Source: Escherichia phage PA16. Taken from it: DNA of 62,708 bases. Shown piece by piece: positions 48,001 to 60,000 of the stretch; position 1 is the stretch's first letter, and every line of letters begins with the position of its first letter. A program made the position numbers. Location of the stretch: sequence record KP682377.1; one strand, given 5' to 3'.

Positions 48001-51000
48001 AGCTTGCACGGGTGGGAGGCCTTGCCACTTCCAGTCTCCGTACAGCGCAGATGGCGCAGGATAACCAGATGGCGAGATACGGGGTAAACCGCCCGGATAA
48101 TCCCGACAGTAATACGCTGGGGTTACGTAATGCCCTGGCAATTGCTGGCGCGAAAAATGGTATCCGTGAAGCCGAACAGGATCGCCAGATGAATATTCTG
48201 ACGGGGGCTTCTGCACCGGCAAGACAGAAACTGAGTGTTGGCGGCCAACTGGTGGCAGCGTAAGGGGGCAATATGGGATACGGTTTACTGGATATTGCAA
48301 ATCAGTCGCGGCGTGAGGCATTACAGGGAATAAGTGACGCAGACAGACGACGTGAAGAAATTGAGGCTGCGAACAAACAGATGGCGGCGCAACAGAAAGC
48401 GCAGAACAAGCAGAATATCGGTACGGGCATTGGTACGGGGGCGGCTATTGGCGCATCCGTTGGTGGTCCTGTTGGTGCTGTTGCTGGAGCAGTAATTGGC
48501 GGCATTGCTGGTTCTTTGTTTTAAGGAGTGGTGAATGAGCGGATTTGCACAGGGGTTACTTGCCGGATTCAGCACCGTTGACCAGGCAATGACCCGTCGT
48601 AAGGAGCTTGGTCTGCGTGAAGCACAGCTTGCCCGGCAACAGAAAAATAACGAGCGCGATTTTGAGTTTGCGCAGTCTCAGTTTGAACATAATAAAAACG
48701 TTGATCAGCGGAACTTTGATTACAGAGCCAAAGTTGACGACCGTAATTATGCACTGAAGGAGAGGGAGTTTAACGCTAACCAGAATTACCGGAATGCGTC
48801 ACTGGGTATGGAGCAGCAGCGACTCCAGTTGCAGAAATACAACCAGCGACGGCTTGAGTATAACGATATGATTGCCCATAGCCAGCCACTAATGGAAGCG
48901 CTTGGAAAAGCAATTGAGGCTGGCGATCAGGAGGCTGCAACGCGTCTGTTCGGGCAGCTGCCAAAGGGACATCCATTAATTCTTATGTCAAACGAAGGCT
49001 ATGCAGCGAAAGCGGGTCAGGCCGTGATCAACCTGCAAAAAATCTTTGGTGATAAGCCGGACATGGCGATCGATTCGCTGAATACCCCGGAAAATCTCGA
49101 TGTGCTTTCCGGCGTGTTTGCCCCGGAACTACAACAGCGTATTGGCATGCCTGATTCAACCGGGGACAAAACGATAAAAGAGGCCAGGATTGGCAGTATC
49201 GTACCAGCGCAGCAGGAAGGGTACGTACTTATTGGCCTTGATCTCACATACAGCGATGGCTCCACCGCGCATAAACCTGTAACAGAATACGGCAGTGCGC
49301 ACCCTGATGATCAAACCGTGCTGGCGATACCCGTTGATAAGGCTATCGCTCAGGTCAGGGATCGCAGCAAATTTGCAGAGATATCGAAAAATTATGGTTA
49401 TTTTATGCCGAAGCAGCAGGGACTTTCTCTGAAAGAGCTTCAGAAGGGGGCCAGCAACGTAGCGGCGGACGCGATCAAGAATGGCGGTAATGCTCAGGCT
49501 GCGGTGGATGAATATTATGCTGCGACTGGTTCACAACCGCATCAACAGAAAATTCAGCAACAAAAACTTCAGCAACAGGTTATCAACTGGGCGGGAGATG
49601 ATCCTGATAAGCTGTCATTTGCCAGAAATGTAGCGGCCCGTCAGCCTGAAATGCTGGAACCTCAGAATCAGAAATTGCTGGAGAACGGGTATGCGAATTT
49701 TCTCCGTATTCAAAAGGCCAGGGGGGAACAGGCCAGAGATGAAAGTGCTTCATCTGCATCTCAGTTTATCCGTGGACTGAAACAGAATTACGCCCAGTAA
49801 TTCACGATATTCCATTAATACCATTTCCTGATGCCCGGCCATTGTGCCGGGTTTTTTTATGGAGTCTGTATGGCCTATTCAGAGGAACAGCGTCCTGAGG
49901 CGCAACTCGGTAACCAGAATCGTAACAGCCTGAACATTCAGCAACCCGGCGAAACTGACAGCTATGAAGCATTTTTCTCTGATCCGAATCGCTGGAAGGA
50001 TAACAGTACGTCGTTCAGCCTGGGCGATGTATTGCCAACAATGGGTAAAGGTTTCGCCCAGTCCGTCCGGGGAACAGGGGAAATGGCCCGTGGACTCGGT
50101 GATGCGATGATTCAGAGCCCGGTAAAAACAGGGGCGCGTATTTTAAATGAGTTCAGCCGTATGGGGCTGCCGGGTGTCGCAACTGTGCAGGATATTTTTG
50201 CCGGTGGCAGCAGGGGGGCTGATGAGGTCATCGATACCCTGCCTGATGGCAAAAACGCGGTTACTGATACTGTCGGTAAAGGTCTGAAGGCAACCGGTAA
50301 GGCTGTCAGTGATGGTGCCAAAGCCACTGATGAATGGCTGACCGGTAAGATGTCGCCGGGTGCAGTTCGTGCGCTGAATACGCCGATGACCGAAGGCTAT
50401 AATGATTCTGCGGTCTGGGTGGCGAAGGGTGTAAACCTGATTGGTGCGCTTGTACCTGATATGGTTGCTGGCGGTGTGGCTAGAAAGGTGGGTGATGTCA
50501 CACTGCGAAAAATGCTGACCGCCGGGCTGGAGAAAAAATACATCGCGGCAGGGATGCAGCCGGAAAGAGCCACGGCACTGGCAGCAGAAGCTGTCGATAA
50601 AAAAATGCCGGATTTATTCCAGGCGGGCCTGATCACCCATTCCACTGTAAGTGCACAGGGGCAGAGTGCAATGGCGGCAGCAGATGCTGTTCTTAATGCT
50701 GATTACTCTGAGCTGGCGCAGTCACCGAAATTTCAGCAGACGTTTTTGTCCATTGACGCCGACCCGCAGCACGCACAGCTTACTGATCGCCAGAAAATGG
50801 ATCTGGCAAAAGAGCGTGTTGCCGATGAGGTGCGCGCGCAGCTGGCAACCGATCCTGAATTGCTGGCTGTGAATGCCATGGCGGCAAAACTGGGTGACGC
50901 ACAACTGTTTAATCTGGTGACACGAGGCACAGCGAAGACCGTTAAAAGCGGCATTGTCAGAAATGCCACGGAACAGGGGGCGATTAATGCGGCGCAGGGC

Positions 51001-57000: not shown

Positions 57001-60000
57001 TTGTCACGCCAGCAGGCGGCGTCTCTTGCCAAAAACATGACGGTGAACTTTAACCGTCGTGGTGAGCAGGGGGCGCTGATGAATTCGCTGTACATGTTCG
57101 CCAACGCCAGCATTCAGGGAACGGCAAATCTGGTGAGAACGCTCGGACATCTTAATGGTGAGGGACCTTTACTGGAGCGCCTTCGCTGGAAGAATCTGAA
57201 TGTTCCGCAGAAAATCGCGCTTGCCGCTGTGGGAGCAGGTTATCTGCTTGGCTCGCTTAACCGCAGCGTGGCGGGTGAGGATGATGACGGGGTTAACTGG
57301 TATGACAAGGTGCCGTCTCATGTGAAAGAGCGTAACCTCGTCATTATGAAATCGGTGTTCGGGGGCAAGGCCGGAGAGTACTGGAGTATTCCTCTGCCTT
57401 ACGGGTACAACGTTTTCTTCCTGCTCGGGCATACTGCTGAAGGTGTGGCGGCGGGTGACCTGACGGCGTCCCGTGCTGCCGGTAATGTTGTTGGTGGTGT
57501 GCTTGGTGCATTCAGCCCGATTGGCAGTGAGACGTCGGAAACACTGTCCGGGGCATTGCTGAAAAATGCAGCGCCGACCATTCTGCGTCCGTTTGCGAAC
57601 CTTGCCATGAATGAAAACTTCATGGGGGCGCAGATTTACCAGGAGAACATGCCGTTTGGTACACCAAAACCTGACAGCCAGCTGGGAAGACGTTCAACGC
57701 CAGAAGCGTACAAGGCGTTTGCATCCTGGCTGAATGCGTTCTCAGGTGGCAGCCAGTACCGTCCCGGCGCGGTGGATATCACACCGGAATCGCTGAAATT
57801 CTGGATTGACTATATCTCCGGAGGGACAGGGCGCTTCATTTCCAAAACCACGGATGCGGCGGTGAAATCGCTGAATGGTATTGATATACCGGAACAGCAG
57901 GTGCCCTTCCTGGGGAAAATTTCGGGGGAGGTGATGCCGTATGCAGACCAGCAGAAGATGTACGACCGGATGACAGAGATTGCGCAGTATCACGCAGAGC
58001 TGAAGAGTCTGACCGGTGCAGAAAGAACGGCGTTCATTGACGAGAACAACGGAAAATTGTCGATGAACGGGCTTATGCAGGATACCCGGAAGAGACTGAA
58101 GGATTTGCGTAAACAGCGTGATGCCATTTACGCCGACAGTACTCTCAGTCTGGCGCAACAGTCGGCGATGGTGAAATCGGTAGAGCGGGATATGAAAATT
58201 GCCGTGGATCGGTTTAACCGCGAGTACAACAAAAAAGTGGGAGTGGATTAACAGAAATGGCCCCGTACGGAAGTGCGGGGCTGATTAAGAAATAAACACT
58301 CATTGACCTGTAATAACCGGAGCTATTAACATATAGTCAGAAGAGCATTTCATGTGATACAGAGAGCCGATTTATGTTTAATGAAGAAAAAGTTGCGCAA
58401 ATGGCAGCGTATTTGCTGAAAAAGCATGGCGGATCTATGCGTTTCATTAAGCTGAAGCAGCAACGGTAATGGCGAATAGCATTTATGAGCAAAATAATCT
58501 TGATATGTTATTAGGCGATCTGATGTAACCGGGATGATGTTCACCCCTTATCGCCGGGGAACAATACCGGCAATCAGAATTGCGGATGGAACTATTCAGG
58601 CCCACGATGATATCGATGAGGAGTTTTTTCAGCCAGTATTGGATGGCTTTCTTATATCCAAATATACGCCATTTGACATCCTCCACGCCCTGAAGGACGG
58701 GGTTTTACAGCGCACCGGATAAGATTCGGTGTTTTGTTGAAAAATACTGTGATAACAAACAGAAAACCCGTCAGTAAGACGGGCTTAGCAAGCTGGGACG
58801 GTTACTTTAATAATTTCAGTGCCTTTACATCCACTTCAACACTGCTCAGGTCTTTATCAATTTCACCCTCAATTCTTACTTTGTCTTTCGGAGAAACATT
58901 CTGACCGGCCCATATGCTGTCATCGATATCCGTGACAATTGTCCCGCTATTGTCACGAAACTCATAACGTTCATCACCCACTTTTTTAACGATGCTCCCT
59001 TCAAGGATAACCCATGCATCATCCTTCAGTTCTTTTGCCTGCGCTACTGTTGAACGCTCTGCTTCAGGCCCTTGGAAACCGCCCTGCTGTGCAAAAGCGC
59101 CAAAAGACACACCAGAAATAAGTGCTGCAATCAATACCTTTTTCATTCATAGTCCTCTTTCAGAGATGAACATTCAAACAGCATTTTCAGTATGGTAAAG
59201 CGCGGGTGCGTTGAGGATGCCTGACACATCAGAGGTGGCGGGAGATTACTCCCCCGCTTGGTCTCTTACTTCTCAGATTCGTAGTCTACGAAGACAGCGA
59301 CCTCCGTCTGACCGGTTCGGATTCGCACCTCGCAGAGGTCTTTCCTCGTTACCAGTGCCGTCACTATGACGGTTAAACAGATGACGATCAGGGCGATTAA
59401 CATCGCCTTTTGCTGCTTCATAGCCTGCTTCTCCTTGCCTTTCGGCACGTAAGAGGCTAACCTACATGTGTTCAGCATGGATTGAGCCTCAGATTAATGT
59501 TAAGCGTCTTGCCGGACGCGTAATGTTAACTGGGGCTTTTCTCTATCTGCCGTTGGTGTTCATGCCCGAGGCAGATAGCCTCAAGCACCCGCAGCAATTC
59601 TACTTAACTCTCCTTTTCCCGCAAACCGTTTTTATCTCCAGCGACAAATCGAATACACAACCAGCACCACCGCCATTACTGTTCCTACATTTGCGAATGC
59701 TTCAGGCCAGGTCATTGATTCACCTTCTGCTCAATATTTTTAAGGTCATTTTCCGCATACAGTATTGCAGTTCTTGCTGCCCGCAACCGTGCTTTGGTGT
59801 TCTTTTCTTCACGCTCGAGGCTGGCAACAGATTCTCGGAGCTGATCGTGTCTGTTATGAAGCTGTCTAATCTCTCTCACCACAGCCTCACCATCGTTCGC
59901 ACACCGCAGAACATACTGAAAAGGGTCCACAACACATCCGCACTGCAAGCACAGGATAACGTGATCCTGTTCATGAACCTCAATGGCCCGATGCTTACAG

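Follow-up and report, generated by a model that had tools for sequence, protein, structure and literature searches.

A polyvalent candidate ejection protein of Shiga toxin podophages with two gluzincin-like domains and an N-terminal module related to N4 virion RNA polymerase

Escherichia phage PA16 (KP682377.1; the whole stretch of 62,708 nt was analysed, is called the window here, and supplies all coordinates) carries a giant gene for a protein of 2,793 amino acids (aa) with two HExxH motifs. With a probability of roughly 70%, we consider this gene to encode the essential internal 'polyvalent' ejection protein of the short-tailed 933W/Sp5/phi24B-type Shiga toxin (Stx) podophages, built on a chassis like that of the N4 virion RNA polymerase (vRNAP). 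Earlier publications have already described the protein, assigned its class and reported that it is essential and located in virions; our results leave that basic picture as it was. Our increments are the delimitation of two gluzincin-like domains, an intact PBECR site, a division of the architecture into core and cargo, and the homology of the N-terminal module to N4 vRNAP. Two published annotations are also corrected, namely the AAA+ ATPase proposed for Sp5 and the metallopeptidase assigned to MuF-C in phi24B; the zincin-like domains lie elsewhere.

Two bodies of published work bear directly on the protein. Deletion of the identical 2,793-aa ORF80 (ECs1242) of prophage Sp5 abolished both plaques and lysogens and was rescued in trans; head shape and DNA packaging were normal, and binding of an anti-tail-fibre antibody was lost (PMC5155283). 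Its authors concluded on a tail-assembly or morphogenetic role and suggested an AAA+ ATPase (COG1483) and an 'energy-requiring step' (PMC5155283). In phi24B, the orthologue gp47 was found in purified virions and was not seen in the cryo-EM map, and was proposed to be a capsid-packaged ejection protein with a metallopeptidase activity in MuF-C (preprint, April 2026). The supplementary table of that preprint lists 10,962 peptide-spectrum matches (PSMs) for gp47, a count exceeded only by that of the capsid protein (17,998). Normalizing PSMs per residue in the same data against the portal, nozzle and capsid proteins, we arrive at a crude estimate of roughly 15-45 copies per virion.

Gene and domain organization

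The giant gene lies downstream of the terminase, portal, capsid, tail fibre and lom genes, all on the same strand, in agreement with its initial annotation as a gene following the tail/lom region. The stop-to-stop open reading frame (ORF) spans 49831-58251 on the + strand and has 2,806 codons when counted from its first ATG. Because that ATG (49831) sits within a terminator-like hairpin, with a stem at 49833-49852 followed by a T-run, the probable translation start is the second ATG at 49870, which GGAG (49861-49864) precedes by 6 nt and from which the protein has exactly the 2,793 aa annotated by PGAP (WP_000331690.1). The initial annotation was thus right about a single uninterrupted frame of this length, about the hairpin before it and about its end at 58251; its start at 49834 falls in the hairpin and gives way to 49870. 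The hairpin is the best-ranked terminator-like site in a scan of the region. In lambdoid late operons, such a hairpin would be read through under Q antitermination. The features of the gene are as follows.

49833-49859, + strand: terminator-like hairpin (GCCCGGC-loop-GCCGGG and T-run), found by sequence inspection, directly 5' of the giant gene
49870-58251, + strand: giant protein coding sequence, 2,793 aa and stop; identical to Sp5 ORF80/ECs1242 and VT2-Sakai orf71, orthologue of phi24B gp47
50119-51192, + strand: N-terminal module (N-module), aa ~84-441, homologous to the N-terminal domain of N4 vRNAP
51217-52989, + strand: biased linker, aa ~450-1040, Ala/Gly/Glu-rich and then Pro-rich, defined by composition windows; no Pfam family at E<=10
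53020-53469, + strand: LPD5, aa 1051-1200 (PF18799, E 6.5e-45), with a confident AlphaFold model
53485-54204, + strand: zincin-like domain 1 (ZN1), aa ~1206-1445, with H1263, H1284-E1285-W-F-H1288, D1291, E1375 and E1382
54295-54879, + strand: zincin-like domain 2 (ZN2), aa ~1476-1670, with H1551-E1552-I-I-H1555-H1556, E1607 and E1614
55117-55386, + strand: MuF_C/PBECR, aa 1750-1839 (PF18819, E 1.3e-17)
55528-58248, + strand: C-terminal module (C-module), aa ~1887-2793, mostly alpha-helical, including LPD38 (nt 57295-57912)

Both HExxH motifs are where they had been reported, in the sequence contexts quoted for them: HEWFH occupies aa 1284-1288 (nt 53719-53733), and HEIIHH aa 1551-1556 (nt 54520-54537). 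Residue shuffling gave a mean expectation of 0.034 HExxH per protein, and two were reached in 0 of 2,000 shuffles. The earlier description of the body as largely low-complexity was too broad: compositional bias is limited to about aa 400-900 (A+G+E up to 43%, Pro 11-12%), outside of which the protein has ordinary entropy and confident AlphaFold models. A separate peculiarity of the giant protein (49870-58248, +) is the complete absence of cysteine from its 2,793 aa, unusual at such a size; this may fit a protein that unfolds, crosses tail and periplasm, and refolds.

Pfam places four domains well above their cut-offs of 27-27.6 bits: LPD5 (aa 1051-1200, 153 bits), LPD1 (aa 1361-1440, 84 bits), MuF_C (aa 1750-1839, 64 bits) and LPD38 (aa 2476-2681, 164 bits). 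PHROGs family 616 covers the full length, with partial matches to other giant-protein families, and the NCBIfam model CLCA_X aligned to aa 1182-1437 with 148.6 bits, under its cut-off of 260. These four Pfam families and the class of 'polyvalent proteins' originate from one study (Iyer et al. 2017), and the giant protein fits the class in combining LPD5, LPD1, MuF_C/PBECR, LPD38 and zincin-like domains of the metallopeptidase (MPTase) type in a late, virion-gene location. The initial reading of the protein as a virion-packaged internal or ejection protein of the polyvalent type is supported. Other searches were largely empty: the full-length protein had no sequence match among all PDB chains (best E 0.8), a permissive Pfam scan of the unannotated segments gave only a weak Gly-zipper (aa 406-433) and Peptidase_M76 (E 0.2), and the PADLOC models of anti-phage defence gave 0 families at E<=0.1.

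Neither HExxH motif falls within a Pfam match, and each domain was therefore examined on its own. In ZN1, the residues H1263, H1284, E1285, H1288, D1291, E1375 and E1382 are invariant in 54/54 homologues that are 31-70% identical, E1375 lies on a predicted helix (1373-1391), and Pfam LPD1 corresponds to the C-terminal third of the domain, at the end with the Glu helix. This pattern is that of a widespread phage-type MPTase clade characterized by a His ending strand 2, an Asp three residues past HExxH and a Glu borne by the conserved helix that follows (Iyer et al. 2017). ZN2 matched no Pfam family; across 48 domains, H1551, E1552 and H1555 are conserved at 94, 100 and 98%, E1607 at 100% and E1614 at 92%. 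Among the curated peptidase families, Pfam gave no significant match to the giant protein, and MPTase-PolyVal detected neither ZN1 nor ZN2.

An AlphaFold2 model of aa 1041-1700 (mean predicted local distance difference test, pLDDT, 80.7) puts both HExxH motifs on helices (pLDDT mostly >90), with beta-strands before and Glu-bearing helices after them. The predicted structure has the mixed sheet, active-site helix, Glu helix and likeness to solved zincins that define the fold, and differs from the non-catalytic linker devoid of a metalloenzyme fold that the initial annotation had named as its counter-case. The closest structural matches of the zincin domains are MtfA, lethal factor, Pro-Pro endopeptidases and the Spartan/Wss1 gluzincins; a Foldseek search of the aa 1041-1700 model against PDB found nothing, and comparison of ZN1 and ZN2 with E. 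coli MtfA by hhalign was not significant (E 0.1). On the strength of the predicted structure together with the conservation of each domain, we consider both ZN1 and ZN2 to be gluzincin-like, and both would be expected to bind metal and to be catalytic.

Further downstream, MuF_C has a predicted PBECR fold (barnase/EndoU/colicin-like), which would make it a metal-independent RNase and no metallopeptidase. Active PBECR domains are marked by a conserved His within the N-terminal helix together with a C-terminal Ser/Thr (Iyer et al. 2017), and H1752 and S1816 are each conserved in 97% of 32 non-redundant homologues. The C-module is kept whole (~95% coverage, 33-58% identity) under differing N-terminal domains, and recurs in giant virion proteins of Ralstonia phage GP4, Burkholderia phage DC1 and the Bcep22-like phages, Vibrio phages and a Bacillus podophage. 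Its AlphaFold model is confident (pLDDT 82.7; predicted template modelling score, pTM, 0.80), and no meaningful structural homologue of this model was found in PDB.

Relationship to N4 virion RNA polymerase and a core-and-cargo architecture

An exhaustive HMMER search with aa 1-450 recovered 102 relatives, 65 of which are proteins of 1,300-4,665 aa in which the match is N-terminal. The hidden Markov model (HMM) of the N-module aligned to aa 153-445 of N4 vRNAP (gp50) with 47 bits, spanning almost the entire model, whereas 500 composition-matched shuffles and the reversed sequence scored at most 3.1 bits; gp50 was also the sole non-self match of this HMM among 664 background ORFs (E 1.4e-11). 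Because pairwise identity is just 13%, the relationship is one at the level of profiles. Two Gly/Ala-rich amphipathic segments lie in the N-module (aa ~188-215 and ~405-433). In two 2026 papers on the full-length N4 enzyme, the N-terminal domain is reported to contain helices predicted to span the membrane (224-278) and to insert into nanodiscs, and is proposed as the inner-membrane anchor of the ejected enzyme; the aa 153-445 match covers these helices. Since the N4 N-terminal region was without reported relatives outside N4-like phages (Iyer et al. 2017) and the phi24B preprint draws no link to N4 vRNAP, this homology, which emerges with a profile built from metagenomic giants, appears to be an increment.

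The resemblance may extend beyond the N-module. Both gp50 (Schitoviridae) and the Stx protein are giant, virion-packaged proteins of T=9 podophages with an N4-gp56-type capsid, and both have a homologous N-module, a long flexible linker and a small HExxH domain that precedes a large alpha-helical C-terminal domain (CTD). According to the same 2026 papers, the N4 CTD consists of a small HExxH domain, C1, and a ~110-kDa helical part, C2, which has no structural relatives. By hhalign, ZN2 aligned to an N4-like C1 profile with 86% probability and an E of 5e-6, over just 32 columns, and the C-module showed no similarity to C2 (E 0.44). Unlike gp50, the Stx protein has no RNA polymerase (RNAP) domain: for such a domain, Pfam and NCBIfam gave no family, and the sole trace, phrog_2206 (E 0.006), was confined to the N-terminal region. 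In its place stand LPD5+ZN1 and PBECR, the C-terminal modules are not detectably related, and the Stx phage, in contrast to N4, is temperate and uses the host RNAP. Separately, the major capsid gene (region 35407-36621) is named 'N4-gp56 family' by PGAP, and the phi24B capsid is T=9, like those of N4-related phages; this ties the virion module to N4-like phages independently and is consistent with the N-terminal homology.

When the relatives were laid out with local HMMs of the modules, the family took the form of an N-module, a variable middle, ZN2 and the C-module. ZN2 occurs in 53/65 giant relatives, usually just upstream of the C-module. The middle holds adjacent LPD5+ZN1 in 19/65 and a helicase or methyltransferase in others, and one 1,977-aa form is free of cargo. 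LPD5 always stands directly upstream of ZN1, and the pair behaves as one cassette.

More distant giants share only part of this plan. The 'DarB-like' giants of GP4 and of Bcep22, JC1 and DC1 (Lessievirus) have the ~900-aa C-module in common with the Stx protein (27% identity over ~80%) and, like it, are encoded where the virion module ends, behind small virion-associated genes, in phages of related portal, capsid and tail architecture; they differ in size (3,224-4,600 aa) and carry other cargo. GP4 is also the phage with the tail most like that of phi24B, and the JC1 and Bcep22 giants are virion-associated by mass spectrometry. The N-module and ZN2 HMMs remained below significance against the GP4 giant. 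That protein (3,224 aa; GP4 7104-16778) has a single HExxH, HEMFH at aa 2170, ~150 aa upstream of its C-module, which is the position of ZN2.

These comparisons suggest, tentatively and with somewhat less than even odds, that the Stx giant protein, N4 vRNAP and dozens of metagenomic phage proteins of 2,000-4,600 aa are variants of one ancestral ejection chassis. Such a chassis might have consisted of a membrane-associating N-module and a core HExxH domain beside a large helical packaging module, and could have been loaded with different cargo: an RNA polymerase in N4, a helicase or methylase in the DarB-like proteins, and a protease plus RNase in the Stx phages. If this is true, each Stx-phage infection, including the lysogenic conversion that creates enterohaemorrhagic E. 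coli, would start with an injected, membrane-anchored protease/RNase, and the genetically tractable Sp5 complementation system would be a model for the packaging of ~300-kDa proteins and their threading through a 3-nm tail.

Internal head proteins that are ejected as a trans-envelope conduit are familiar from T7 (gp16) and P22 (gp7/gp16/gp20), where they are required for infectivity and dispensable for packaging. The Stx giant has no sequence or structural similarity to these proteins, and is one polypeptide with enzymatic cargo, in contrast to three separate proteins.

Proposed role and competing explanations

As an N4-vRNAP-like ejection protein, the Stx giant would be laid out as an N4-related N-module, a flexible linker, exchangeable cargo (LPD5+ZN1), the core ZN2, the PBECR predicted RNase and the ~900-aa helical C-module. 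About ten to a few tens of copies would be packed in the T=9 head, probably alongside the products of ORF76 and ORF79, and, once the receptor is engaged and the tail needle lost, would exit through the tail unfolded, as beads on a string. The N-module may then associate with the inner membrane and help to form or anchor a DNA conduit, upon which the zincin domains would cleave host proteins, the polyprotein itself or both, and host RNA would be the target of the RNase domain; ZN2 and the C-module may have a packaging function like that of the N4 CTD. Ejection, membrane insertion and substrates, like the copy number given above, are what we infer from the homologies and the virion data.

The zincin domains may alternatively autoprocess the polyprotein only, at a stage before packaging, inside the head or once ejected, with no host target. 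Autoprocessing was proposed for polyvalent MPTase domains with P1 DdrB as a precedent (Iyer et al. 2017), and would suit ZN2 as a near-universal core element between the cargo and the C-module. The spread of gp47 in the phi24B gels, which were reported as per-protein slice counts together with total peptide counts, also fits several large fragments: slices 1-4, all above the slice of the 80-kDa portal, hold 2188/1686/1187/1260 PSMs, with a long tail below. Because that sample had been stored for six months and its capsid protein smears across slices as well, the apparent fragmentation may instead be degradation or aggregation. N4 vRNAP, which has the related C1 domain, is packaged unprocessed, and we regard an exclusively autoproteolytic role as rather unlikely.

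Part of the Sp5 evidence weighs against the preferred reading of the giant as an ejection protein. Particles of the ORF80 deletion mutant are DNA-filled and normal-looking, non-infectious and unbound by the anti-tail-fibre antibody, a loss of labelling that a pure cargo model leaves unexplained, and deletion of the neighbouring ORF79 (421 aa) gives the same phenotype (PMC5155283). The view of the Sp5 study, that the protein is a tail-assembly or morphogenetic factor needed to build or attach the tail and carries no ejected effector, is favoured by both observations. We nevertheless consider it unlikely: gp47 is not needed to complete the cryo-EM tail model of phi24B, despite its great abundance in virions; the N-terminus has a homologue in the injection/membrane domain of the ejected N4 vRNAP; and the domain set is that of polyvalent effector proteins. 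The AAA+ ATPase idea behind the 'energy-requiring step' is likewise unsupported and is rejected for the absence of [GA]xxxxGK[ST] and hhhhD[DE] motifs from the 2,793 aa and of any AAA Pfam match. A role in the tail and a role in ejection are compatible, because a portal-docked internal protein could be needed for tail attachment, and the lost labelling suggests a further contribution of the giant protein, perhaps jointly with ORF79, to the attachment or stability of the tail.

We similarly doubt that the HExxH sites are structural or metal-binding and non-catalytic, with ZN2 serving encapsidation in the manner of the N4 CTD. The N4 CTD, including C1, is required for encapsidation and has no reported protease activity, and ZN2 aligns with the C1 profile over the 32 columns given above. 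Typical of active enzymes, however, both the general-base Glu of HExxH and the third-ligand Glu are 100% conserved in the two domains, and ZN1 retains the extra active-site His and Asp of an MPTase clade.

Ejection proteins of other podophages bear wall-degrading domains, as in T7 gp16, and the presence of two zincin-like domains could be read in the same way. A peptidoglycan-breaching ejection protein that digests the wall for a trans-periplasmic conduit, as the phi24B preprint proposes, is nonetheless among the ideas we reject as highly improbable. The peptidase assignment of the preprint rests on a mislabelled MuF-C, a PBECR RNase-type fold; the closest structural matches of the zincin domains are protein-cleaving or cytoplasmic gluzincins, with no wall peptidases of the LAS/M23/M15 type among them; Pfam scans detected no lysozyme or transglycosylase domain in the giant protein; and ZN1 is an optional cassette missing from most relatives. 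Finally, a DarB-like anti-restriction protein that methylates or remodels incoming DNA, suggested by a phrog_10089 'DarB-like antirestriction' match (aa 2351-2681, E 1e-25) and by the names of the GP4 and DC1 relatives, is rejected with a chance that is all but negligible, as the match is restricted to the LPD38/C-terminal module, Pfam scans found no methyltransferase or helicase domain (some relatives carry these as cargo), and its essentiality on E. coli K-12 sets the protein apart from accessory anti-restriction factors.

The gene takes up 13% of the phage genome, is essential and yields one of the most abundant virion proteins, with a function listed as unknown. The placement of the zincin domains, the separation of cargo (LPD5+ZN1, PBECR) from core (N-module, ZN2, C-module) and the link to N4 now offer handles for studying how the DNA of Stx phages, and whatever is injected with it, is delivered: residues to mutate, domains to delete and a comparative model.

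Neighbouring genes and distribution

For the small genes that precede the giant gene, the phi24B orthologues gp48, gp50 and gp51 were also detected in virions (preprint supplementary table).

47158-47814, + strand: 218-aa gene (Sp5 ORF76, phi24B gp51), virion-associated, 523 PSMs in phi24B virions
48535-49800, + strand: 421-aa gene (Sp5 ORF79, phi24B gp48), with the same deletion phenotype as the giant gene

The 421-aa protein is probably a genuine virion or ejection protein and a functional partner of the giant protein. No Pfam family covers it, and it does not resemble N4 gp51/gp52; phi24B gp48 has 1,634 PSMs in virions, with a maximum in the gel slice that fits its size. In the preprint, gp48 bears the label 'Transcription factor?' and seems to have been set aside as contamination. 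Loss of ORF76 markedly lowered infectivity in Sp5 (PMC5155283). The 218-aa product of this gene has a homologue (E 2.4e-6) of 277 aa, named 'virion-associated', which GP4 encodes upstream of its giant gene, and the cluster of small genes before the giant gene is thus partly conserved across very distant phages; none of the upstream small proteins showed similarity to N4 gp51/gp52/gp53/gp54. The 83-aa 'bacteriocin' between these two genes (48273-48524, +) is a glycine-zipper protein (Gly-zipper_YMGG, E 9e-6) with a C-terminal GxxxG-rich hydrophobic stretch, whose orthologue, with 13 PSMs in phi24B virions, was treated as a contaminant in the preprint. A small membrane-active protein beside an ejection protein could be part of the conduit.

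The window is base-for-base identical to the deposited genomes of Escherichia phages PA4, PA5, PA11 and others, and the giant gene is 100% identical to the VT2-Sakai/Sp5 gene; Sp5 ORF80/ECs1242, phi24B gp47 and the 933W ORF are the same gene, located, as here, behind lom and the small genes upstream. At >=90% identity, it is present in 185 phage records and 427/5,426 complete E. coli genomes, and the phages that carry it are short-tailed 933W/phi24B-type Stx phages (Sepvirinae, Traversvirus). Phages of this type are the main vehicles of stx2a.

Two genes of the Hok/Gef toxin family flank the block of small virion genes and the giant gene, at ~46466-46606 (+) and 59266-59421 (-), as annotated by PGAP in an identical prophage. 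A ZN1-like region that seemed to occur in the terminase large subunit (TerL; ~30350, E 6e-12) was an artefact of force-aligning the database protein P0055 among the training sequences of the ZN1 HMM, and was gone after its removal. P0055 itself is a fusion of TerL (aa 1-346, 86% identical, corresponding to window ~30350-32070) to aa 1506-2097 of the giant protein, presumably from a prophage with an internal deletion of ~24 kb.

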